From Bacteroidales bacterium (lineage in GTDB: Bacteria; Bacteroidota; Bacteroidia; Bacteroidales; VadinHA17), in contig DATKTA010000035.1 of the NCBI GenBank assembly GCA_035531395.1, positions 72,736 through 136,735 on the forward strand: DNA of 64,000 nucleotides, in the 5' to 3' direction. Position numbers and translations under genes: made by a program. The first letter of the stretch is position 1; every line of letters begins with the position of its first letter. Positions 7,302 through 51,962 of the stretch are shown here, piece by piece. A model generated the notes under the pieces. That model saw nothing but the letters and a program-made list of their open reading frames with translations, did no database searches and was not told where the DNA came from.

Positions 7302-7733
7302 TTATTGTTTTTTATAAACACTCATGTAGTCTGTTCTCAGCAGATGTCCGTCTGAGGATCCCTCTATCGCCCATTTAATGCTAAGATCAGTTTCATTTAC
7401 TGTAAATGCTGTGTTAACAATTGTGCCGTTGCTCCCGGTCATTATAAGAAGATCACCTTCAACTTTCCAGTATAACTCATCTGAAATTTTCCCATCTAAA
7501 TACTTCTTTGCAGTTCCGTTATTATATATTTCCATAACGAGATATCCCGGTTCATATGTCCTGGTAGATTCATTTTGTTTCACATTATCGTAATAGTTTA
7601 TAGTTGTTGTTGAAACCTGATCCCAAACACCAACTAAAAGGGTTGTTGAATCAATTGGATCTTTTTCACAACCTGTGTTTGAAACAATAATAACTGAAAT
7701 CAAAATGATAATAAATGAATAGCTCTTCTTCAT
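7302..7733 (-). CDS. Small lipoprotein (lipocalin-like), function unknown
   Basis: Signal peptide with a lipobox-like SNTGC and a beta-rich sequence. No motif assigned. Confidence 0.55.
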   Translation of the reverse strand: MKKSYSFIIILISVIIVSNTGCEKDPIDSTTLLVGVWDQVSTTTINYYDNVKQNESTRTYEPGYLVMEIYNNGTAKKYLDGKISDELYWKVEGDLLIMTGSNGTIVNTAFTVNETDLSIKWAIEGSSDGHLLRTDYMSVYKKQ

Positions 7734-7802
7734 ATGACCTGATTTGTTTCTTCAAAAATACGAAAAAGAATTACTTCCTTCTTAAATCTTCTTCCTTTGT
7801 AT

Positions 7803-9206
7803 CTACTTTCCGATACAGAAATTCTTAAATATATTTCCCAGAATCTCATCTGATGTTATGACTCCTGTGATCTCCCCAAGATAATGTATTGCCTGACGAA
7901 TATCGGTAGCAATCAGATCGTCTGGTATTTTATTTTCAAGACCTTCAAGCACGCGTTCAAGACTTAATGAAACATTCCGCAATGCTTCATAATGCCTTAT
8001 ATTTGTGACTATTACGCTATCAGAACTTATCTTTTCCTTAACGACTGTTTCTATGAGCTTTTTTCTGAGATCTTCAAGACCTGTTTTTTCCTTTGCAGAA
8101 ATAAATAAAAGATCTTCATCAGGTGTTAAATCTATTCTGGCCGATAGCTGTTGCTGCTTAGCAGCATCTGAGGTGTCAGCCTTATTGACAAGAATTATCA
8201 ATTTCTTATCAGATTCTTTAATCTTGTCCTTTACAGATTTGATTCTCAGATTAATCTGTTCAGGAGTATCTGACACTTCATCAATCAGAAGAACAACAGA
8301 TGCCTGGGAAATCTTTTCAAAGGTTTTCTTAATTCCAAGTGATTCAATTACATCTGTTGTATCACGTAAACCGGCAGTGTCGATAAATCTGAACTCCAGT
8401 CCCTCAATTACAATTGTATCTTCTATGGTATCTCTGGTCGTCCCCGGAATATCTGATACAATTGCCTTATCCTCCATGAGAAGGGCATTCAGTAAGGTTG
8501 ACTTACCGGAATTTGGTTTTCCCACAATTACAACCGGAATACCATTCCTAACAGCATTACCTAAGCTGAATGACTCTGACAAGTTGTCCGCCAGGCCTTT
8601 AACTCTGATAATAATCTCCTTTAATTGCTTCCTGTCTGCAAATTCTACATCTTCTTCGCCGAAATCCAGCTCAAGTTCAATCAGTGAAGCAAAATTGAGC
8701 AGTTCAGATCTCAGCCTGGCAATCTCGGCAGAAAATCCACCCCGCATCTGATTTATTGAAACTCTGTGAGCTAATCGTGAAGAAGAGGCAATAACATCAG
8801 CAACCGCCTCTGCCTGTGACAGATCAAGCCGGCCATTCATGAAGGCTCTCTGTGTAAACTCACCAGGTAAAGCCAGCAATGCTCCATTTTGTGTCAATAG
8901 TTCAAGTATCTTACCAACTATATAAGGAGAAGCATGGCAAGATATCTCAACTGAGTTTTCCCCTGTATATGAATTAGGCGATCTGAATATACTCACCAGT
9001 ACCTCATCAATTACTTCACCTTCAGATCGAACCTCTCCGAACACAATCGTAAACCCCTTACTTACAATAAGGTTAACAGTTTTATCTAAAGGAAAGAAAA
9101 ACTTTGAGACAATGTTCAGAGCATCCTGACCACTTACCCTAATAATTGAAATTGCCCCTCCTGCTCCGGTAGCAGGAGCACATATTGTCTCTTCCGACCT
9201 GATCAT
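7803..9206 (-). CDS. mnmE: tRNA uridine-5-carboxymethylaminomethyl modification GTPase MnmE
   Basis: G-domain GKPNSGKSTLLN and DTAG motifs, plus the hallmark C-terminal CIGK. Start trimmed to the ATG at 9206 (MIRSEETICAPAT), matching the usual MnmE N-terminus. Confidence 0.92.
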   Translation of the reverse strand: MIRSEETICAPATGAGGAISIIRVSGQDALNIVSKFFFPLDKTVNLIVSKGFTIVFGEVRSEGEVIDEVLVSIFRSPNSYTGENSVEISCHASPYIVGKILELLTQNGALLALPGEFTQRAFMNGRLDLSQAEAVADVIASSSRLAHRVSINQMRGGFSAEIARLRSELLNFASLIELELDFGEEDVEFADRKQLKEIIIRVKGLADNLSESFSLGNAVRNGIPVVIVGKPNSGKSTLLNALLMEDKAIVSDIPGTTRDTIEDTIVIEGLEFRFIDTAGLRDTTDVIESLGIKKTFEKISQASVVLLIDEVSDTPEQINLRIKSVKDKIKESDKKLIILVNKADTSDAAKQQQLSARIDLTPDEDLLFISAKEKTGLEDLRKKLIETVVKEKISSDSVIVTNIRHYEALRNVSLSLERVLEGLENKIPDDLIATDIRQAIHYLGEITGVITSDEILGNIFKNFCIGK

Positions 9207-9377
9207 TCTTTTTACGATTATAAATAACAAATGTATGAAACTTAATCGAAGTGAGGATGACCAGATTTTGGCAGATGTCAGTTTAAATCAGAGAATATTT
9301 AACTTAGTCTTCCGCTTTATTACTTCAACAGAATGACTGAATAAATTAAAGAGCGTCTGCCACCGAGAGTCTATAGT

Positions 9378-9436
9378 CCTGAACCCTGAGCCCTGACCCT
9401 GAGCCCTGAGCCCTGAGCCCTGAGCCCTGAGTTCAG
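9378..9436. repeat. Heptanucleotide microsatellite (CCCTGAG)n, about 7 units
   Basis: Read directly: cctgaa ccctgag ccctga ccctgag x5. Lies in the gap between the LolA-like gene 3' end and the mnmE 5' end. Confidence 0.95.
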
Positions 9437-9461
9437 TGTCCATCGTCATACAATCCTTAAA

Positions 9462-10232
9462 TTAACGTTCCAGATTTTGAATACTGAATACAGAATCATC
9501 AACTTTTGCCCCTTCAGCAATATTTGTCATCTTAATTTCCGATTTTCGGTTTGTTCTCAGGTTGGAAGATAACATATCGCTTACAATGAATTTCCCTTCA
9601 GGGAGGTTATGAATTCCTTTAATCTCAATTATTTTGTAAATAACATTTTCAAAATTATAGATTTCCATCTTCTGTACCTGGTAATTCACCTTATCTATGT
9701 AACTCACCTTCTTTGAATAGCCATACTCATCAGCCTTATCCTCATCGACGGGTATGCTTTCAATGACAAACTGATTATTACTGCCCGATTGTGTTGTATG
9801 TTTATGGACAAAATCACTTACTGGTGGAGAACTCATATCGGCATTTGTAAACTCTGAATTCATAAAGCTCTTACCCTTCTCCGAGCTAACAATGCGACGG
9901 GTTTTTTTCAATGCTGGCAAATATATCCACATCTCATCTGCTGTTTTTAAGTTGTCAATTATCAACATTGCTGTCCCCTTTACGTCTGGTGGGGAGAGGA
10001 ATTTGATATATCTTTTCCCCACGTCTTCAGGAAAGCTTTTTGTTGACATAGCAAATGTCCTGTTCCTGGTGCTTCCATTCTTCTCTGTTATTGTCAGAGT
10101 TATATTGGCACTTATTGTACCTGCGATGCTTAGCTCCCTCGATTTGTCCATAATAATTTCAGGTTCAGGCAATTGAGCTGCTCCCTGTAGAATTGTCAGC
10201 AGGACGAATAATGCTGTTACTGATATTTTCAT
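9462..10232 (-). CDS. Outer-membrane lipoprotein-sorting (LolA-like) protein
   Basis: Signal peptide. The pattern RYIKFLSPPDVKGTAMLI..DEMWIYLPALKKTRRI..SFMNSEFTNADM is typical of the LolA_like family found next to MMPL exporters. Confidence 0.7.
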   Translation of the reverse strand: MKISVTALFVLLTILQGAAQLPEPEIIMDKSRELSIAGTISANITLTITEKNGSTRNRTFAMSTKSFPEDVGKRYIKFLSPPDVKGTAMLIIDNLKTADEMWIYLPALKKTRRIVSSEKGKSFMNSEFTNADMSSPPVSDFVHKHTTQSGSNNQFVIESIPVDEDKADEYGYSKKVSYIDKVNYQVQKMEIYNFENVIYKIIEIKGIHNLPEGKFIVSDMLSSNLRTNRKSEIKMTNIAEGAKVDDSVFSIQNLER

Positions 10233-15301: not shown

Positions 15302-16180
15302 ATGAGCGTTCTTCTAAACAAAGATTCAAAAGTTATTGTACAGGGCTTTACCGGTAGCGAAGGTACATTTCATGCAACACAGATGATTGAATACGGAACT
15401 AATGTTGTAGGAGGAGTTACTCCGGGAAAAGGAGGCCAGAAGCATCTTGATCTGCCAGTCTTCAACACTGTAAGAGAAGCTGTTGAGGAAACAGGTGCTG
15501 ATGTTTCAGTAATCTTTGTACCACCGGCCTTCGCTGCTGATGCAATGCTTGAAGCTGCTGATGCCGGAATAATGCTCATTGTAACAATAACTGAAGGCAT
15601 TCCTGTATCAGATATGATTCTTGTTAAAAACCACATTAAATCAAAAAAATGTCGCCTGATAGGCCCTAACTGTCCTGGTGTTATAACTCCCGGAGAGGCA
15701 AAGGTTGGAATAATGCCGGGTTTTATACATAAAAAAGGTTCTGTGGGAATAATTTCACGATCAGGTACACTTACATATGAAGCTGTGGATCAGGTTACCA
15801 AGATGGGATTGGGGCAGTCAACCTGCATCGGTATCGGAGGAGATCCAATTGTAGGCACAACTACACTTGATGCAGTTAAACTCATGATGGAAGATGATGA
15901 AACGAAAGCAATTGTTGTTATAGGTGAAATCGGCGGAACAATGGAAACAGAAGCTGCTGAATGGATCAGGGAAAACGGGACAAAACCGGTTATTGGCTTT
16001 ATTGCCGGACAGACTGCACCTAAGGGTAGAAAAATGGGACATGCAGGTGCAATAATAGGAGGTAAGAATGATACAGCCAGCGCCAAGATGGAGATTATGA
16101 AGGAGTGTGGAATAAATGTGGTTCAATCACCTGCTGATATTGGTAGCACAGTCTTTAATGCTCTTAAGGAAAGGCAGTAA
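15302..16180 (+). CDS. sucD: Succinyl-CoA synthetase alpha subunit
   Basis: N-terminus [23 protein letters not shown] and the phospho-His region MGHAGAII. No sucC is adjacent. Confidence 0.92.
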
Positions 16181-16266
16181 AGGCTGTAAAGGCCATAGAG
16201 GCTGCAGGTTATGAAGTAAAATAGTCTCTAAAGCATTTAAAGCCTCTAAAGCATTTAAAGCTTTTT
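16171..16266 (+). terminator. Long imperfect hairpin with tandem 9-nt word arms plus T-run (sucD terminator candidate)
   Basis: 5' arm is aaaggctgt/aaaggccat/agaggctgc. 3' arm is an 18-mer (ctctaaagcatttaaagc) x2 followed by ttttt. tagaggct pairs with agcctcta, with further imperfect pairing beyond. Confidence 0.55.
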
Positions 16267-32443: not shown

Positions 32444-33056
32444 TTCTATTTGACATAATATTAATTATAGGCAAAACGTCCCGCACTCTTAATTATCCCG
32501 AAATTTGCGTTTAGCTCCGCTAATTGACATAATTTCAGATATGAGCCGCAAGGATCATATCGGTACCGAAATTATGTCAAAGCAAATTTCTTCCTTCTAT
32601 ATCGGCAACGATTTTATGTCAAAGGAATTTGCGGTTTACAGAGAAAGTAATTTTCTACAACGCCCTTCTGCCTCTTTTGCAGCGATAATTAATACTATAT
32701 CAAATAGAATTGGCGACCGGCATCCCATCTTCGCCAAGGCTACGATGGACAAGACAGGCTTCCGGCAACTGGCTTTAATTCATCCAGAATCAATTATTTC
32801 GATCCAGGTAGTATATCTGTTCGGAAAAATGCTGTGGAGGCTGGAGATACTTTATAGGCTGTAAAAGCAATAGCTGGTTGAAAAAGCTGAAAGGTTGAAA
32901 AGTTGAAAGGTTTAAGCGTTATTAAAGTGCAGTACTTAGTTCTTTCCATTCGCATTCTCCACAAAATATTTTGAGCAATTAAGTCCAGCCGTTGAGCCAT
33001 TGTCCCATTGCGCCATTGCGCCTTTAATTTGCTTTAAAACATTATGTCAAATAGAA
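32444..33056. repeat. 613-bp non-coding segment bounded by perfect 16-bp inverted repeats (MITE-like or invertible-segment-like)
   Basis: ttctatttgacataat (32444-32459) is the exact reverse complement of attatgtcaaatagaa (33041-33056). Internal copies of the core occur at 32524-32533 (ttgacataat), 32571-32580 (attatgtcaa) and 32614-32622 (ttatgtcaa). No convincing ORF lies inside. Confidence 0.6.
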
Positions 33057-40186: not shown

Positions 40187-40453
40187 CTACTTATGCTTCC
40201 ATCTATCGAGCTTGCTGATATGGGATGTATAAAACCATCTTTTTATTGGACCTACACCCATCTCCTTCAGTTTTTCTTTTACAAGTTTTACCATTTCTGC
40301 TGAAGTGGTAAAATTATCTTTAAAGGAACCTCCCTCATAACAAAAACTGCAGTATTTAACTGTTATTGAGCCATCTGCATTAGTTCCTCCCCTGGCTGGA
40401 TCTTTTTCCATTGGCATTCCGCAACTCTGGCAGAACTTATCAAATTTTTCCAT
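40187..40453 (-). CDS. Small zinc-ribbon domain protein
   Basis: CQSCGMP...CSFC cysteine pairs. 88 aa. Confidence 0.6.
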   Translation of the reverse strand: MEKFDKFCQSCGMPMEKDPARGGTNADGSITVKYCSFCYEGGSFKDNFTTSAEMVKLVKEKLKEMGVGPIKRWFYTSHISKLDRWKHK

Positions 40454-40669
40454 AAGTCATGTAATATGATTAGTTTTTAATCAAAGAACTGACTATAATT
40501 TAAACCTTTTCAAATAAATAGCATCATTGTCAATTGTTTTTTTCTAATTTTATATGAAAACCTGCTTTTATATATATAAATCAGACACCTTAAATCCATT
40601 AACATTAATCTTTATTAAATTTGAAAATGCTCTTTTTCGTATCTCACTTTAATTTTGATTGCCAATAAA

Positions 40670-41332
40670 ATGATACAGATACAAACCACTACTCTTGACT
40701 TTCTCAACTTGCTAATGCGTAATAATAATAAGGAATGGTTCGATAAACACAGGACTGATTATCTTGCTGCTAAAGCCAACTTTGAAAGTTTTGTGCAGGC
40801 ACTTTTAAATGAAATAACTGGTTTTGATCCGATTATGAAAGGACTTGAAGCTAAAAGCTGCATTTTCAGAATAAACAGGGATATAAGATTTTCTCATGAC
40901 AAATCTCCTTATAAAACCAATATGGGTGCATTCATGGTTAAGGGAGGCAAAAAGAACGGAGACAAATTTGCAGGATACTATTTCCACATAGAACCAGGAA
41001 AAAGCATGCTTGCTGGTGGTGCATATTTACCTCCTGCTCAATGGCTTACTGCAATAAGGGAGAAAATAGATGATGAACCTGCCACTCTTCTAAAGGCAAT
41101 TAATACCCCGGAATTCAAAAAGTATTTCGGACAGCTTGAGGGAGAAAAATTAAAAAAAGCACCAAAGGGCTTTGATCCCGGACACAAATACATTGAACTA
41201 CTTAAGTTCAAAAGTTTTTTAGCAATCCATAACCCACTTGATAAACAAATACTTGGATCTGATTACCTGAAGTATTCTGCTGAAGTATTCAGAGCCATGA
41301 AACCATTGAATGATTTTCTGAATGAGTACTAA
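40670..41332 (+). CDS. DUF2461 (TIGR02453) family protein
   Basis: FLNLLMRNNNKEWFDKHRTDY and RINRDIRFSHDKSPYKT motifs. The TTG at 40655 was replaced by the ATG at 40670. Confidence 0.75.
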   Translation: MIQIQTTTLDFLNLLMRNNNKEWFDKHRTDYLAAKANFESFVQALLNEITGFDPIMKGLEAKSCIFRINRDIRFSHDKSPYKTNMGAFMVKGGKKNGDKFAGYYFHIEPGKSMLAGGAYLPPAQWLTAIREKIDDEPATLLKAINTPEFKKYFGQLEGEKLKKAPKGFDPGHKYIELLKFKSFLAIHNPLDKQILGSDYLKYSAEVFRAMKPLNDFLNEY

Positions 41333-45511: not shown

Positions 45512-46051
45512 ATGAAAAAAATGATCATCATTCTCGTTATCAGTTTATTTACTGTTCCAGGCATCTTTGCACAGGGTAATGTGAAGCTGGCTGTAGGGGT
45601 TAAAGCACCTGACTGGATGTTCACAGATTCTGAAAAGAAAGAGTTTACAATGAATTCCTGGGCGGGGAAAGTAATGCAGATCAATTATGTTGACCCGGAT
45701 GAATCAGAATTGAATGAGCCTTTTAATGAAGCAGTTAATAAAGCTGTTGATGTTGAAAAGAGAATAACCCGCGATCTCTTCAAGGGAATTGGAATAGTTG
45801 ACTGCAAGTCGACATGGAAGCCAAATGGCTTAATACGTATAATTGCAGGGAACAAAGCAAAGAAATTCAATACCACCATACTTTTTGATTATGATGCCAA
45901 ACTGCAGGAGCTATGGGGTATGCCACAGGATAACTATACGGTTGTAATTGTTGATAAGAACAGAATCTGCAGGGCTCTGTATGTCGGCAAGATCCCGGAA
46001 TCAGATAATGAGAAGATAATCAAGATGATAATTGAGTTAACAAAAGAATAA
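45512..46051 (+). CDS. Periplasmic YtfJ-like thioredoxin-fold protein
   Basis: Signal peptide. Overall colinearity with my memory of E. coli YtfJ (WAGKV..INYVD ... VVIVDKN). Not verified. Confidence 0.45.
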   Translation: MKKMIIILVISLFTVPGIFAQGNVKLAVGVKAPDWMFTDSEKKEFTMNSWAGKVMQINYVDPDESELNEPFNEAVNKAVDVEKRITRDLFKGIGIVDCKSTWKPNGLIRIIAGNKAKKFNTTILFDYDAKLQELWGMPQDNYTVVIVDKNRICRALYVGKIPESDNEKIIKMIIELTKE

Positions 46052-46128: not shown

Positions 46129-46617
46129 ATGGTTTGCAGGATTATTGAAAATTTTCCTGAGCTTGACATAACTGCAATTAAAATTACTCCGCACTTTCAT
46201 GAAACCACTGATGGTTTGATTGTTATTGATGAAGGAGATGGATATGCTATATACAGTGAGACCAATCCCGGAAGCAATAAAGATTCTTCCCGAATGTTGA
46301 GTTCAGGTGCTGTAAAAGTATATTTTGCAAAAGTCTGGGATGAAAAGCTATTGACTGTATTCAACAAGATAATGAATTACATTGAGGCTGGGAGTCCCGT
46401 AGTCTGTGAATCCCCTGCCCTCCGAAACTATATTGAACCTGGAGCATTTATTTTAATGAATTCAGATTTGCAATATAATAAAAAGAATATAAGCCATTTA
46501 CAAACATTACCTCATTTAATGATAAAACTTGAGGAGCTTGACAATATAGATTCAATATCAATTGGATTTGAAGATGGGAAATGGTTTGTTAAGCCGGAAG
46601 ACAGAAGTCAGAAGTAG
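46129..46617 (+). CDS. MobB-like P-loop protein; annotated ATG probably truncates the N-terminus
   Basis: The in-frame upstream sequence (open from 46036) reads NLLIISGTGNKAGKTS before the ATG. IKITPHFH resembles MobB IKHTHH. Confidence 0.45.
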   Translation: MVCRIIENFPELDITAIKITPHFHETTDGLIVIDEGDGYAIYSETNPGSNKDSSRMLSSGAVKVYFAKVWDEKLLTVFNKIMNYIEAGSPVVCESPALRNYIEPGAFILMNSDLQYNKKNISHLQTLPHLMIKLEELDNIDSISIGFEDGKWFVKPEDRSQK

Positions 46618-46652: not shown

Positions 46653-47480
46653 CTATTTCTCCTCATCTATATCTGAAATGTCACTTCCAAGCCTGGCCTT
46701 GATACGCTGAAGGTCATGTTTCATTCCAGCTACGGCCTGTATGAGCTGTTTCTCAGGTAAAACAGGGTCCGGCAGCTCGTTACTTATGTAATTAACAAAC
46801 TTCCATATCTCCTTTACCTCATTTATATGAACCTCATATGGTTCATAAATAGGATTAAGTGAATAAAGAACAAGTTTCCCATCCTTTCTCAGGGTATTTT
46901 CAACCACCTTGAAGACAATCCCATCATCAAGAGTAAAGACTATATAAGCTTTTCCGCTTATTATCTCCATCCAGTCCTGCACATATTCACCTGTGACCCA
47001 TGATCCATCCGGTATTGGCAGCATGGAATCGCCCTTGAGCTGGAATGTTCTGTATTTCTTCCTGTCAGACAGGAATGGCAGGGTAAATACCGGCAGTTCT
47101 CCAATATATTCAGGGTCAGCATATCCTGTTGCATAGCCGGCTTTTGCCTTTTCAGGTACCAGCTCGATGTTTTCCCTGTTCTGAGAGTTTACCGTGGTAG
47201 TTAATACTCTCAGATTACTACCTTTTACATAAGCATCATATCCGCGTTCCAGTTCACCAAGCTGACTCTCTGACAGTTTTGAGATATCAAGCTTCAGTAT
47301 TGTATCGATGGATATATTAAAATACCCTGAAAATGAGATAAGTATCTCTATCCCAGGCTGAGCTACACCGTTCTCATAGCCACTTAGCGTTGAACGTTTG
47401 AGGTTAAGGGCAAATGCTACATCATCCTGTGTACGCCCTCTCCTTTTTCTTAGAAATTTTATGTTGGAAGCAAAATACAT
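46653..47480 (-). CDS. LexA-like repressor: XRE-type HTH plus S24 autopeptidase domain
   Basis: N-terminal HTH (RGRTQDDVAFALNLKRSTLSGYENG). C-terminal LKGDSMLP serine motif and a downstream Lys region. Divergent from the polymerase genes. Confidence 0.8.
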   Translation of the reverse strand: MYFASNIKFLRKRRGRTQDDVAFALNLKRSTLSGYENGVAQPGIEILISFSGYFNISIDTILKLDISKLSESQLGELERGYDAYVKGSNLRVLTTTVNSQNRENIELVPEKAKAGYATGYADPEYIGELPVFTLPFLSDRKKYRTFQLKGDSMLPIPDGSWVTGEYVQDWMEIISGKAYIVFTLDDGIVFKVVENTLRKDGKLVLYSLNPIYEPYEVHINEVKEIWKFVNYISNELPDPVLPEKQLIQAVAGMKHDLQRIKARLGSDISDIDEEK

Positions 47481-47491
47481 AATAAAATATT

Positions 47492-47533
47492 TGATTATAT
47501 TGTAATCATTGATTTGATTAATTTCTAATCAAA
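47492..47533. promoter_or_regulatory. Two tandem palindromes TGATTA-N5-TAATCA (candidate operators); the second overlaps a TAnnTTTG-type -7 box on the minus strand
   Basis: tgatta tattg taatca at 47492-47508. tttgatta atttc taatcaaa at 47513-47533. The minus strand reads TACTTTTG at 47537-47530. Confidence 0.5.
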
Positions 47534-47580
47534 AGTAAAATATATAATCTAATTATCCAAGATATTAATGGAAAAAGTTT

Positions 47581-47640
47581 GGAGTGAGCTAAAGTCTGGA
47601 GTACTTAAAGTCACAACAACTTTAGGCACTTTAGGCACTT
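47581..47640 (+). promoter_or_regulatory. Imperfect hairpin module ending 11 nt before the Y-family polymerase start codon
   Basis: ggagtgagctaaagt / ctggagtacttaaagt pairs with ctttaggcact x2 (ctaaagt:actttag plus gagtg:cact). Confidence 0.55.
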
Positions 47641-47651
47641 AAAACTACAAA

Positions 47652-48911
47652 ATGTTTTTAATCGGCAACATAGAACGTTCCATCCTGCATCTCGATCTCG
47701 ACACCTTCTTTGTATCGGTTGAGAGGCTCAGGAACAGCAGGCTCCTCGAAAAGCCGGTGATAATAGGCGGCATGTCGGACCGTGGAGTGGTATCAAGCTG
47801 CAGCTATGAGGCCCGCAAATACGGTGTAAGCTCAGCAATGCCCATGAAACTGGCCCGTAATATGTGTCCTGATGCGATCATAATACGAGGCGATATGGAA
47901 CTTTACAGTAATTACTCAAACATTGTAACAGATATAATAGCTGAAAGATCACCACTTTATGAAAAGTCATCGGTTGATGAGCACTATATCGATCTTACAG
48001 GCATGGATCGTTTCTACGGATGCTACAAATGGTCACATGAGCTGAGGCAGTATATAATAAAAGAGACCGGGCTGCCTATTTCAATAGGATTATCGGTAAA
48101 TAAGACTGTATCGAAAATAGCAACAGGAGAAGCAAAACCGAACGGGGAGATAGAAGTGCAGAAAGAAATAGTCCTCCCCTTTCTCGATCCGCTTTCAATA
48201 AACAAGATCCCGATGATAGGTCAGAAGACTTACCATCTGCTCCGTTCAATGGGAATAGCAAAAATCTACACACTCAGGAATATTCCTCCGGAAATGCTTG
48301 AAAAGCTTATGGGCAAAAATGGTATTGATATATGGAAGAAAGCCAATGGCATTGATTCAACACCTGTTTTCAGCTACTCGGAACAGAAATCAATAAGTAC
48401 AGAGCATACATTTGAGAAGGATACTACCGATATGGCTCGGCTTAACCAGCTGCTTGTAAGCATGATAGAAAAGATCTCATTTGAGATGAGGAAGCAGGAG
48501 AAGCTCACATCGTGCATCACAGTTAAAATAAGATATTCAAATTTTGATACCCACACCCTGCAGAAACGTATACCCTACACATCTTTCGACCATGTGCTTG
48601 CCGATGTTGCCAAGGAGCTCTTCACAAGGCTGTACCAGCGGCGTATGCTCATAAGACTGATCGGGGTCAGGTTCAGCCATTTGGTCAGGGGAGTACAGCA
48701 ACTCGACATGTTTGACGATACCCCTGAAAAGGTAAGTCTCTACCTGGCTATGGATAGTCTGCGGAAGCGTTTCGGGCGAAATGCAGTAGAAAGGGCCTCA
48801 GGTGTGATGACAATAAGAGAAAGGGAGGAGAAAGTGCTTAAACAGCTCGAAAATGCTATCAAAGAACAGAATATGATGGAGGAACGAATAAGAAAGTATG
48901 GAGTGAGCTAA
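47652..48911 (+). CDS. dinB: Y-family DNA polymerase (DinB/Pol IV-like, catalytic residues present)
   Basis: LHLDLDTFFVSVE and SVDEHYIDLTG align to DinB IHVDMDCFFAAVE and SLDEAYLDVT. 419 aa. Confidence 0.85.
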   Translation: MFLIGNIERSILHLDLDTFFVSVERLRNSRLLEKPVIIGGMSDRGVVSSCSYEARKYGVSSAMPMKLARNMCPDAIIIRGDMELYSNYSNIVTDIIAERSPLYEKSSVDEHYIDLTGMDRFYGCYKWSHELRQYIIKETGLPISIGLSVNKTVSKIATGEAKPNGEIEVQKEIVLPFLDPLSINKIPMIGQKTYHLLRSMGIAKIYTLRNIPPEMLEKLMGKNGIDIWKKANGIDSTPVFSYSEQKSISTEHTFEKDTTDMARLNQLLVSMIEKISFEMRKQEKLTSCITVKIRYSNFDTHTLQKRIPYTSFDHVLADVAKELFTRLYQRRMLIRLIGVRFSHLVRGVQQLDMFDDTPEKVSLYLAMDSLRKRFGRNAVERASGVMTIREREEKVLKQLENAIKEQNMMEERIRKYGVS

Positions 48912-49019
48912 AGTGTGGAGTGAGCTAGAGTTAAAAATAATAAGAATAATATGAGAACCAAAACTCTAAGTACTCTAGGCACTTAGGCACTCTAGGCACT
49001 CTAGGCACTCTAGGCACTC
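48900..49019 (+). promoter_or_regulatory. Second copy of the hairpin module, spanning the polymerase stop codon and ending 6 nt before the dnaE2-like start
   Basis: Same 15-nt 5' word ggagtgagctaaagt, then gtggagtgagctagagt. The 3' arm is ctaggcact repeated about 4.5 times. ctagagt pairs with actctag. Confidence 0.55.
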
Positions 49020-49025
49020 AAAACT

Positions 49026-51962
49026 ATGTATTTAAACTGCCATTCATACTACAGCCTTCGCTACGGAACAATGTCTGTTGAACAGCTTGTGCAGAAAGCA
49101 GTTGCCGGATCGGCTGAAACCATTGTGCTTACCGATATCAATAACTCAACAGCCATACCTGACTTTGCCGCAGAATGCAGAAAGAATGGAATAAGACCTG
49201 TTGCCGGTATCGAATTCCGTAATGAAAATGAACTTCTTTACATATGTATTGCGCGCAATAACAATGGATTAAGAGAACTCAATGAATTTCTCTCAGATTC
49301 TAACTTCAGCAAAACACCGGTCCCCTTCCCTGCTCCACGCTTCGATGAAGCCTATACAGTCTATTCACTGAAGAAAATTCCTTCAAGAGAACTATTTGAT
49401 AATGAGAGAATAGGAATAAAAACTAATGAGCTTAACAGGCTTATCTCTATTAATTCCTCATTTATAAGGAACCGCATGGTACTGCTTCATCCGGTAACAT
49501 TTGCAGAGCCAAATGATATATTTATTCACCGCAGCCTGAGGGCTGTTGACAATAATATCCTGCTCAGCCATTTAAAACCCTCACAGCATGCAGGTGAGGA
49601 TGAGTTTTTCAGGAATCCGGAATATTTTGAAAAATTGAAGAAGGAACATCCATGGCTATTTGAAAATACAGGAAAGCTTATTAATGACTGTAATCTTTAC
49701 TTTGACAGTGAAAGTCTCAAAAACAAGAAGTTATACTCCGCCAGCAGATATGACGATAAGTTGCTGCTTGAGAAGCTTGCATGGGACGGAATGACTTACA
49801 GGTACGGTAAAAAAAACTATGAGGCTAAAAAAAGAATTACACATGAACTTGAGATAATTGACAGGCTGGGTTTTTCTGCCTACTTCCTGATTACCTGGGA
49901 TATTGTAAGGTACTCGATGGCCCGGGGTTTTTATCACGTCGGCAGAGGCAGCGGAGCAAATTCTGTTGTTGCTTACTGCCTGAAAATCACCAATGTTGAC
50001 CCTATTGACCTGAACCTTTACTTTGAGCGCTTCATCAACCCCAAACGAAGTAGTCCGCCTGATTTTGACATCGATTATTCATGGAAAGAAAGGGATGAGG
50101 TGATCGATTATATTTTTAAGCGGTATGGTTACAGCCATACTGCGCTTCTCGGCACTATCAATACATTCCGTGGAAAGTCGATAGTAAGGGAACTGGGCAA
50201 GGTACACGGACTTCCAAAGGAAGAGATCGATTCTCTGATCGATAACCCGTCATCAGAAACCAACAGGAATGAAATAACCGAAACCATTTTCTCAACAGGA
50301 CTCAGGATTGCTGACTTTCCAAATATGAGAAGCATTCATGCAGGAGGCATACTTATATCAGAGGAACCGATCACCTGCTATACTGCTCTGGATATGCCGC
50401 CAAAAGGATTCCCCACAACACAGTGGGACATGTACACTGCTGAGGAAATAGGCTTTGAGAAGCTCGATATACTTAGTCAGAGGGGCATTGGCCATATCCG
50501 TGAGAGCACCGAGATAATACTGCAGAACAGGGCTATTGAAGTTGATGTCCATGCCATTCAGAAATTCAAGGAGGACAGTAAAGTAAGGGAATACCTGCGT
50601 AACGGTGAGACCAAGGGATGCTTTTATATAGAGAGCCCGGCAATGAGAGGATTGCTGAAAAAGCTGAAGTGTGACACCTACACTACCCTTGTTGCTGCCA
50701 GCTCGGTCATCAGGCCCGGAGTAGCACGATCCGGGATGATGAAGCAATATATATACAGGTTCCATAATCCCGATAAATTCGAATATATACATCCTGTGAT
50801 GAAAGAACAGCTCGAAGAGACATTCGGCGTAATGGTATACCAGGAGGATGTTCTGAAGGTATGCCATCACTTTGCAGGACTCGATCTGGCTGATGCCGAT
50901 ACGTTAAGGAGAGCCATGAGTGGTAAATACAGGTCTAAACAGGAAATGAAGCGCATAGTTGACAAGTTCTTCTATAACTGCCGTCAGAAGGGATACAGCG
51001 AAGAGGTGACACAGGAGGTATGGCGACAGATCGAATCGTTTGCCGGTTACTCGTTCTCCAAAGCGCACTCAGCATCATATGCTGTTGAGAGCTTCCAGAG
51101 CCTGTACCTCAAGACGCACTTTCCACTGGAATTCATGGTTGCTGTCATCAATAATTTCGGTGGTTTTTACCGTACATGGGTATATGTGCATGAAGCGCGA
51201 AGGTTCGGTGCAAGCATCGAACTCCCATGCGTCAATAAAAGCAAATACAAGACAACTATTTATGGAACAGTTATATACATAGGGTTTATACATATCATGA
51301 GCCTTGAATTCAGCCTTGCACAATCGATCGAGACTATACGTGCCGAGGAAGGGCCTTTCAAAGATCTGAATGATTTTGTAACCAGGGTTGCTCCGGGTCT
51401 TGAACAGTTGATCCTCCTGATAAGAGCAGGTGCTCTCAGGTTCACAGGGAAAAAAAAGTCTGTACTTCTATGGGAGGCTCATATGATGATAAACAAGAAC
51501 AAGACTGAAAACATCAGGCCCCTCTTCTCTCCTCCTGTTAAAAACTTTACACTTCCTGAACTGGTTCAGGGTAAGATGGAAGACGTATATGATGAGATTG
51601 AACTATTTGGTTTCCCTGTTACTGTAAGCTGGTTCGATATGCTTGAAACATCATTCAGGGGCGAGATTACTTCTCAGAAAATGATTGAATCTGTCGGTAA
51701 AACTGTACGTATGGTAGGTCACCTGGTTACAGTCAAATATATTAAAACAGTAAAAAATGACTGGATGAACTTTGGCTGCTTCATTGATGCCGAAGGAAGC
51801 TTCTTTGACACAGTGCATTTTTCAAATTCACTCAAATTATGGCCATTCAAGGGAAGCGGGACATACCTGCTCCTCGGAAAAGTTGTTGAAGATTTTGGTT
51901 TTCCGTCACTCGAGGTTGAAAAAATGGCTAAGCTTCCCATAAAGCCTGACCAGAGATATTAG
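49026..51962 (+). CDS. dnaE2: Pol III alpha-subunit paralog, DnaE2-like error-prone polymerase
   Basis: PHP N-terminus MYLNCHSYYSLRYGT. Polymerase core motifs (PDFDIDY, GFEKLDILSQRG, SFAGYSFSKAHSASYA). 978 aa, shorter than a typical replicative DnaE. Positioned after the Y-family polymerase. Confidence 0.8.
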   Translation: MYLNCHSYYSLRYGTMSVEQLVQKAVAGSAETIVLTDINNSTAIPDFAAECRKNGIRPVAGIEFRNENELLYICIARNNNGLRELNEFLSDSNFSKTPVPFPAPRFDEAYTVYSLKKIPSRELFDNERIGIKTNELNRLISINSSFIRNRMVLLHPVTFAEPNDIFIHRSLRAVDNNILLSHLKPSQHAGEDEFFRNPEYFEKLKKEHPWLFENTGKLINDCNLYFDSESLKNKKLYSASRYDDKLLLEKLAWDGMTYRYGKKNYEAKKRITHELEIIDRLGFSAYFLITWDIVRYSMARGFYHVGRGSGANSVVAYCLKITNVDPIDLNLYFERFINPKRSSPPDFDIDYSWKERDEVIDYIFKRYGYSHTALLGTINTFRGKSIVRELGKVHGLPKEEIDSLIDNPSSETNRNEITETIFSTGLRIADFPNMRSIHAGGILISEEPITCYTALDMPPKGFPTTQWDMYTAEEIGFEKLDILSQRGIGHIRESTEIILQNRAIEVDVHAIQKFKEDSKVREYLRNGETKGCFYIESPAMRGLLKKLKCDTYTTLVAASSVIRPGVARSGMMKQYIYRFHNPDKFEYIHPVMKEQLEETFGVMVYQEDVLKVCHHFAGLDLADADTLRRAMSGKYRSKQEMKRIVDKFFYNCRQKGYSEEVTQEVWRQIESFAGYSFSKAHSASYAVESFQSLYLKTHFPLEFMVAVINNFGGFYRTWVYVHEARRFGASIELPCVNKSKYKTTIYGTVIYIGFIHIMSLEFSLAQSIETIRAEEGPFKDLNDFVTRVAPGLEQLILLIRAGALRFTGKKKSVLLWEAHMMINKNKTENIRPLFSPPVKNFTLPELVQGKMEDVYDEIELFGFPVTVSWFDMLETSFRGEITSQKMIESVGKTVRMVGHLVTVKYIKTVKNDWMNFGCFIDAEGSFFDTVHFSNSLKLWPFKGSGTYLLLGKVVEDFGFPSLEVEKMAKLPIKPDQRY

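Follow-up and report, generated by a model that had tools for sequence, protein, structure and literature searches.

Gene content and synteny of the locus

We analyzed a three-gene locus in a 64,000-nt stretch of contig DATKTA010000035.1 from a Bacteroidales bacterium (assembly GCA_035531395.1), this whole stretch being referred to below as the window. The locus encodes a non-canonical LexA-type repressor (275 aa, 46653..47480, minus strand) and, divergently from it, a DinB-type Y-family polymerase, PolY (419 aa, 47652..48911, plus strand), followed by a DnaE2-type C-family polymerase (978 aa, 49026..51962, plus strand). An earlier note on this DNA had drawn the same three open reading frames (ORFs), and the motifs it quoted are all present (HLDLDTFF at residue 13 and SVDEHYIDLTG at residue 107 of the 419-aa protein; GDSMLP at residue 150 of the 275-aa protein). 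Between the lexA-like gene and relA/spoT there are only polY and dnaE2. As that note had also stated, no imuA lies beside the module: in the 10 kb flanking it on each side, Pfam searches called neither a RecA-like nor an ImuA-like gene. Further homologs of the DnaE, Y-family, or S24 proteins are absent from the window.

A scan for PolY loci yielded 80 related loci, one genome per species (~17 kb of DNA per relative, 1.2 Mb in total). All of them come from uncultured metagenome-assembled genomes (MAGs) labelled Bacteroidales, Bacteroidia, or Rikenellaceae, and the sampling sites of these species comprise soil, fen, peat, and lake sediment. The locus is chromosomal and occupies the same position, between typA/bipA and relA/spoT, in 80 species, with the gene order lexA-like(-)/polY(+)/dnaE2(+)/relA-spoT(-) kept wherever the contig permits. 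Across relatives, identity ranges for the three module proteins are 82-95%, 86-92%, and 77-90%, whereas an adjoining 162-aa ORF, which is syntenic in most of them, shows only 41-67% identity, a difference that indicates strong constraint on the three module genes. These and the following comparisons relied on Pfam, NCBIfam, Rfam, and PDB sequence/profile searches, as well as on hhalign and tblastn.

An intact Y-family polymerase next to a DnaE2-type polymerase

The 419-aa protein carries the Pfam domains IMS (4.3e-45) and IMS_C (6e-26), and it passes the NCBIfam Pol IV model PRK02406 (277 bits, cut-off 256) while scoring only 88 bits with the UmuC model, which supports its earlier description as DinB-like. 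When aligned with E. coli DinB (4ir1), its residues D15/D17 correspond to D8/D10, F19-F20 to F12-F13, and D109-E110 to D103-E104. The catalytic triad (D15, D109, and E110, matching D8, D103, and E104 of DinB) and the steric-gate region (F19-F20) are thus intact and not ImuB-like, so that the acidic catalytic residues are indeed kept, as had been proposed. The ~70 residues that follow the little finger comprise a clamp-binding-type motif (QQLDMF at residue 349), a RecA-like motif, and a short, conserved helical tail of ~35 residues at the end of the protein, and PolY has no ImuB-C domain. The RecA-like motif corresponds to residues 356-381, which align ungapped with residues 4-29 of E. coli RecA at a score reached by 5 of 1000 shuffles. 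A motif resembling the RecA N-terminus has been described in PolY by Timinskas and Venclovas (PMC6511836).

The 978-aa protein matches the Pfam families PHP, DNA_pol3_alpha (1.1e-65), finger, and HHH_6. Its catalytic Asp residues lie in PDFDIDY (345) and EKLDIL (478), which align with PDIDTDF and KMDFL of Taq DnaE (2hpi). The PHP domain is both shortened, with ~50 residues missing, and degenerate, the H-L-H of the Taq enzyme being replaced by Y-L-N and the Asp of SLLDG by Tyr. Neither of the NCBIfam models is passed, the score being 541 for DnaE1 (cut-off 1002) and 466 for the error-prone type (cut-off 939). The DnaE1 match spans positions 200-1027 of the 1146 in the model and leaves over 41 residues of the protein. 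The last ~120 model positions hold, in E. coli DnaE, the C-terminal domain that binds tau, so that this domain has no counterpart in the 978-aa protein. A reduced PHP domain and thumb are features of Bacteroidetes DnaE2, and among the bacterial genomes surveyed none has DnaE2 as its sole DnaE (PMC3919608). Judged by architecture, context, and the literature rather than by a tree, the 978-aa protein appears to be DnaE2-like, as the earlier note had suggested, and fits the DnaE2B group of the literature.

A predicted LexA-type repressor with a non-canonical DNA-binding domain

The repressor combines a helix-turn-helix (HTH) domain of the HTH_3 family (PF01381, 1.1e-13, residues 7-60) with a Peptidase_S24 domain that exceeds its Pfam cut-off (30.9 bits vs. 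23.3). The winged HTH of LexA (LexA_DNA_bind, PF01726) found no Pfam match in the 275-aa protein. Three features are invariant in 20 orthologs, namely Ala114-Gly115, the predicted cleavage bond, and Ser152 and Lys191, the predicted catalytic residues. The protein can therefore be described, as it had been before, as an S24 repressor that is predicted to be cleavable.

Its placement in a family comes from the alignment published by Sanchez-Osuna et al. 2021 (PMC8565304), from whose supplement we took reference C-terminal sequences. One of these, WP_025606010.1 from Pseudarcicella (P. actiniarum), has been validated by electrophoretic mobility shift assay and belongs to the group that recognizes CTAA-N5-TTAG, while WP_075324850.1 from S. 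agarivorans belongs to the GGA-N5-TCC group. With the former, the repressor shares 45% identity, ungapped over 160 aa, and with the latter 35%. Its segments KAKAGY, GDSMLP, and IVFKV share columns with KASAGY, GDSM, and VFKR of the published alignment, which its authors in turn align with the Ala-Gly bond, Ser119, and Lys156 of LexA (PMC8565304). By sequence, the repressor is thus a member of this Bacteroidetes family of non-canonical LexA proteins. Membership was settled by this alignment, and the other comparisons caught only the HTH domain or a weak signal: PDB sequence and profile matches were to XRE-family repressors and covered the HTH domain only, hhalign against lambda CI aligned the HTH alone, and the C-terminal domain gave only weak pairwise alignments, at z = 1.9 with lambda CI and z = 2.5 with E. 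coli LexA.

A conserved palindrome marks three promoters

The spacer between the lexA-like gene and polY is conserved over its first ~95 nt only, and this core contains two 17-bp palindromes of the form TGATTA-N5-TAATCA. Operator 1 (TGATTA-TATTG-TAATCA, 47492..47508), an exact palindrome, lies 11 nt from the repressor start codon, and operator 2 (TGATTA-ATTTC-TAATCA, 47515..47531) lies 34 nt from it, with a start-to-start distance of 23 bp between the two. The box is found in this spacer in 72 of 73 species, and operator 1 is nearly invariant across 67 species, its 5-bp spacer included. In two species (L069 and L079) the whole lexA-polY spacer measures only 92-93 nt, a length at which the two divergent promoters must overlap with the boxes. 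A scan for sigma-70-type promoter-like sites, which does not cover Bacteroidetes promoters, found them no more often than in shuffled sequences.

In the related loci, the box is also nearly restricted to this spacer. Among 134 exact matches in the 1.2 Mb of related loci, 132 fall in the lexA-polY spacer and the other two at the position orthologous to a box found elsewhere in the window. This third operator (TGATTA-GTTTT-TAATCA, 40467..40483) is the sole further exact match in the window and lies 13 nt upstream of a gene for an 88-aa Zn_ribbon_2 protein (PF12674, 1.8e-19; 40187..40453, minus strand), 7 kb from the repressor. A DUF2461/TIGR02453 gene (40655-41332, plus strand) is divergent from the zinc-ribbon gene and shares the box-bearing spacer with it. 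Where the locus of a relative reaches the zinc-ribbon ortholog, the box is present upstream with at most one mismatch in six of seven cases, 10-18 nt from the gene, which makes the zinc-ribbon gene a probable further member of the regulon. The boxes thus mark three promoters in the window, those of the repressor itself, of polY-dnaE2, and of the zinc-ribbon gene, and the conservation of the last suggests that the repressor has at least three target promoters. The earlier note had called the repressor dedicated to the polymerases; the box at the zinc-ribbon gene and the membership in a LexA-like family both speak against this. Within that family the motif is known to drift, diverged boxes have been documented, and one predicted ATTA-N5-TAAT dyad is listed in Table S10 of the same study (PMC8565304). 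We consider TGATTA-N5-TAATCA to be a candidate operator and a lineage-specific variant within the family.

Two side observations concern these sites. The TATTG spacer of operator 1 is as invariant as its half-sites, while that of operator 2 is variable; a promoter element may overlap with operator 1, or additional contacts may be made there. The genes of the Zn_ribbon_2 and DUF2461 proteins are candidate damage-response genes.

Repeat-array hairpins and a PF05635 cassette in the operon spacers

The same repeat module stands before both polymerase genes, with a left GGAGTGAGCTAAAGT-type array and a right array of CTYTAGGCA 9-mers. In the polY leader (47574..47640, plus strand), the right arm, (ACTTTAGGC)n, stops 11 nt before the polY ATG and pairs with the left, GGAGTGAGCTAAAGT-type arm at -23 kcal/mol (z = -4.2; here and below, duplex energies of repeat arms were compared against shuffles). 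The second copy (48893..49019, plus strand) consists of a left arm, (AAAGTRTGGAGTGAGCT)x2.3, that overlaps the final 19 nt of polY, and a right arm, (ACTCTAGGC)x6.4, that stops 6 nt before the dnaE2 ATG. The polY-dnaE2 spacer has the length that had been reported for it, 114 nt (48912-49025), and it folds, its arm duplex reaching -37 kcal/mol (z = -4.9). It contains neither the box nor a plus-strand terminator-like site, which fits co-transcription of polY and dnaE2. Rfam gave no match in 47400-49100, even at E = 1.

In relatives (L008, L032, L035, and others), the same arrays enclose an ORF of 119 aa that belongs to the 23S_rRNA_IVP / four-helix-bundle family (PF05635, 63-67 bits; TIGR02436, 82 bits) and occurs in both spacers. 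The PF05635 family, to which Avd of the diversity-generating retroelements also belongs, comprises ORFs of 23S rRNA intervening sequences. The 9-mers of one arm are the reverse complement of those in the other (AGTGACTAG and CTAGTCACT), and the arm duplexes of intact cassettes reach -37 to -67 kcal/mol, mostly with z = -6 to -10. All 28 tblastn hits obtained with the 119-aa ORF in the 80 loci fall within these two spacers and share the strand of the operon, and three independent look-ups of the genomic context of protein-database homologs led to the same operon. Purifying selection acts on the ORF, whose median ratio of nonsynonymous to synonymous substitution rates (dN/dS) is 0.09, at saturated dS. 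Cassette carriers include L008 (at 7560-7919 and 9336-9695), L032, L035, L041, L048, L051, L064, and L071, and further L010, L016, L037, L038, L060, and L082-L090. With IVP denoting the 119-aa PF05635/TIGR02436 protein, the operon reads lexA / IVP-polY-(IVP)-dnaE2 in about a quarter of the related species. The window itself has no PF05635 ORF (best tblastn E = 6.7).

Both spacers are hypervariable, ranging from 92 to 954 nt between lexA and polY and, across 71 related species, from 0 to 1400 nt between polY and dnaE2. Most species have other, unrelated hairpin inserts at both positions and a few have no insert, among them L069 and L079, in which the polY-dnaE2 spacer is 0 nt long. The hairpins of the window are best read as decayed, ORF-less remnants of a facultative cassette of the intervening-sequence type and not as required parts of the module. 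The earlier note had described a structured spacer between the polymerase genes; taking it for a conserved element of the module would be at odds with its variable length, with the unrelated inserts of other species, and with the make-up of the window copy, which amounts to two cassette arms.

Two other explanations for these spacers were tried and rejected. A riboswitch or attenuator in the polY-dnaE2 spacer would not be expected to be hypervariable and missing in some species, and the repeats before both polymerase genes, once considered as repressor sites, are in relatives the ends of the ORF-bearing cassette.

Several individual genomes show further variation in these arrays. In a complete genome, on chromosome OY970276.1 (L054:7046-10661), the two spacers are greatly enlarged, to 954 and 1400 nt, and the PF05635 ORF recurs in them in several tandem copies, some complete and some partial. 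L081 is a metagenome contig whose PolY is identical to that of the window and whose lexA-polY spacer is 100% identical; in L081:11310-11383, compared with window positions 48963-49019, there is one extra CTCTAGGCA unit of 9 nt directly preceding the start codon of dnaE2. Either the repeat number is polymorphic among near-identical strains or the assemblies differ. Runs of N break up the 9-mer arrays in two MAG contigs (L064:7693-7970 and L016:9729-10020) and look like masked stretches or assembly gaps, so that array lengths taken from MAGs call for caution.

A likely SOS-type module and the alternatives to it

Taken together, these results make it likely that the locus is an SOS-type chromosomal module in which a non-canonical LexA is coupled to a polY-dnaE2 operon, and we propose that its products act as a PolY-RecA-DnaE2B mutasome. 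In this scheme, a repressor dimer would bind the two TGATTA-N5-TAATCA palindromes overlapping the divergent promoters and would shut off its own gene, the polY-dnaE2 operon, and at least one distant promoter, that of the zinc-ribbon gene. Upon DNA damage, RecA filaments would stimulate a cut at Ala114-Gly115 by the Ser152/Lys191 dyad, and loss of the repressor by cleavage would derepress the operon, from which polY and dnaE2 would be co-transcribed. The active DinB-like PolY, the DnaE2B-type polymerase, and RecA would then act together as a translesion mutasome, with RecA held through the RecA-N-terminus-like motif of PolY, in replacement of ImuA. The combination that the earlier note had put forward, an active DinB-like enzyme in the position of ImuB with a DnaE2-type polymerase and no ImuA nearby, appears to hold.

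What was read directly from sequence comprises the gene content, the intact catalytic residues, the family of the repressor, the conservation of the operator at three promoters, and synteny, while the PolY-RecA-DnaE2 complex is modelled on proposals in the literature. Several points weigh against the scheme. Repression, cleavage, and induction are carried over from the published behaviour of the family. The S24 domain of the repressor found no PDB match by sequence or profile and is divergent, and a single-sequence AlphaFold model of the protein (predicted local distance difference test, pLDDT, of 35) was uninformative and was not used. Neither CTAA-N5-TTAG nor GGA-N5-TCC occurs in the conserved spacer core of 73 species and, because neither published box is present, conservation is the sole ground for the operator assignment. 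Finally, the 978-aa protein scores slightly higher with the DnaE1 than with the error-prone model (541 vs. 466).

This last point, together with the lack of another dnaE in the window, would agree with the 978-aa protein being the replicative DnaE of the cell rather than a specialised DnaE2. We hold this to be very improbable, since the top-scoring model, although of DnaE1 type, is reached at only about half of its cut-off, the PHP domain lacks ~50 residues and has Y-L-N and Y in place of the HxH and Asp metal ligands, and the last ~120 model positions, tau-binding in E. coli DnaE, are unmatched. The gene moreover lies in an operon behind a Y-family polymerase and under an SOS-type operator, and both the absence of surveyed genomes with DnaE2 alone and the reduced PHP and thumb that mark Bacteroidetes DnaE2 (PMC3919608) point the same way. 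Even less credible is a prophage or mobile element bearing a CI-type repressor and polymerases. The repressor does have a CI/XRE-like HTH domain, and its top NCBIfam match, below cut-off, is the phage RstR family. However, the position between typA/bipA and relA/spoT is constant in 80 species, integrase, capsid, and other phage genes are absent within 10 kb, and the base composition is not atypical. More of a case can be made for a local regulator devoted to the polymerase operon, as opposed to a LexA-like one with a broader damage regulon, given that nearly all exact boxes in the related loci (132 of 134) sit in the lexA-polY spacer and that boxes were not seen at recA, uvr, or other classic SOS genes in the DNA examined (the 64 kb of this genome and the related loci). 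We nevertheless regard it as unlikely, as a third exact box stands 7 kb away at the zinc-ribbon gene, where six of seven relatives retain it, and as members of the family control SOS regulons of multiple operons (PMC8565304).

A different question is whether the spacers take part in regulating the SOS-type module. The repeat-array hairpins could serve post-transcriptional control, as RNase III sites or as stems masking translation, with the number of repeats tuning expression. Their arms pair strongly (z = -4.2 and -4.9) and stop 6-11 nt short of the start codons, hairpin-forming inserts of unrelated sequence occupy both positions in most relatives, and strains with identical PolY differ by one 9-nt unit. 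Such a function seems doubtful to us in view of L069 and L079, which have no insert (spacers of 92-93 nt and 0 nt), of similar arrays in unrelated intergenic regions, which make the hairpins look like a genome-wide repeat class, and of the absence of any Rfam match. It is equally a matter of speculation, and in our estimate improbable, that the cassette is more than a selfish insert and forms a facultative fourth component of the operon, with slippage-prone, stem-forming arms next to the polY and dnaE2 start codons that would take part, even when ORF-less, in RNA processing or translation control, and with the Avd-like four-helix-bundle protein, where present, acting with the polymerases. We retain the SOS-type module with facultative inserts in its spacers as the likely reading.

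Comparison with known systems

The module closely resembles systems already described. Bacteroidetes PolY2 and DnaE2, with an active PolY and with neither ImuA nor ImuB-C, were reported by Timinskas and Venclovas 2019 (PMC6511836), for example from Cellulophaga algicola, with RecA proposed as a partner through the RecA-NT-like motif. A 2026 survey names this arrangement DnaE2B-PolY-RecA and finds such genomes to be without imuA and imuB (PMC12926913). The locus in the window likewise has no ImuA, ImuB, or ImuB-C nearby and adjoins a lexA-type gene, and its PolY combines an intact catalytic Asp/Asp/Glu set and a RecA-like motif with an adjacent DnaE2 that has a reduced PHP domain and no tau-binding domain. 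It differs from the described cases in its host, an uncultured Bacteroidales lineage known only from MAGs, and in the PF05635 cassettes inserted in the operon in about a quarter of the species of this lineage.

On the side of the repressor, the S24/HTH LexA of Bacteroidetes has been shown to bind its operator, mitomycin C induction has been reported, and dinB-dnaE operons are repressed (Sanchez-Osuna et al. 2021, PMC8565304). As in these non-canonical LexA systems, a dyad-N5-dyad operator stands in the promoter of the repressor itself, which is divergent from an error-prone polymerase gene. Unlike in them, the box of the window, TGATTA-N5-TAATCA, is neither of the published motifs, and the hosts are labelled Bacteroidales or Rikenellaceae, although these labels may follow another taxonomy; in complete genomes, both non-canonical LexA ortholog groups are absent from the order Bacteroidales (PMC8565304). 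With the LexA-regulated imuA-imuB-dnaE2 cassettes of Proteobacteria and Actinobacteria, the locus shares a putatively damage-regulated Y-family protein and a second Pol III alpha paralog, presumably for translesion or mutagenic synthesis. In contrast to those cassettes, its Y-family protein is catalytically intact and has no ImuB-C, no ImuA is found nearby, the DNA-binding domain of the repressor differs, and the DnaE2 appears to belong to another group.

The cassettes of the relatives resemble 23S rRNA intervening sequences in having a 119-aa four-helix-bundle ORF between long arms that are complementary and fold into a highly stable stem. They depart from them in lying not in rRNA but in the leader or the intercistronic spacer of an SOS-type mRNA and in having arms made of tandem 9-mers, and both copies in the window have lost the ORF. 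A literature search linking PF05635/TIGR02436 to SOS or DnaE2 returned nothing relevant.

The arrangement is therefore a further example of a known system and not a new one, and the variant translesion module that the earlier note had proposed had already been described in 2019 (PMC6511836), 2021 (PMC8565304), and 2026 (PMC12926913). What appears to be new, modestly, is the lineage, the sequence of the box, and the presence of PF05635 cassettes in this operon. With the locus, 80 uncultured species of soil, peat, and sediment provide a further, well-conserved case of a putative ImuA-less mutasome with two active polymerases, and the non-canonical LexA family gains members in MAGs that carry the label Bacteroidales, an order from which it is reportedly absent. 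The candidate operator would allow the SOS regulon of this lineage to be rebuilt from MAGs alone. The link between the PF05635 cassette and the operon, which is unreported, provides a small extra lead, and we regard it and the new operator as the sole leads worth following.

Neighbouring ORFs and other repeat arrays in the window

Two ORFs on the plus strand lie near the downstream end of the repressor gene, and neither has a Pfam or NCBIfam match. The fast-evolving 162-aa ORF mentioned above (46129-46617) is situated just 3' of the repressor gene, and an ORF of 179 aa (45512-46051) is found close by.

Unrelated intergenic regions of the window contain short tandem arrays as well, with CCTGAGC x8 at 9378-9431, AAAGGCNGT and TAAAGCATT arrays at 16170-16265, and GTTGAAAA and GCCATTGC arrays at 32877-33022. 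The same types of unit appear in the polymerase-operon spacers of other species, such as GGGCTCA in L004 and GTTGAAAA in L036, which points to a genome-wide class of repeats in this lineage, composed of tandem arrays paired against complementary arrays.

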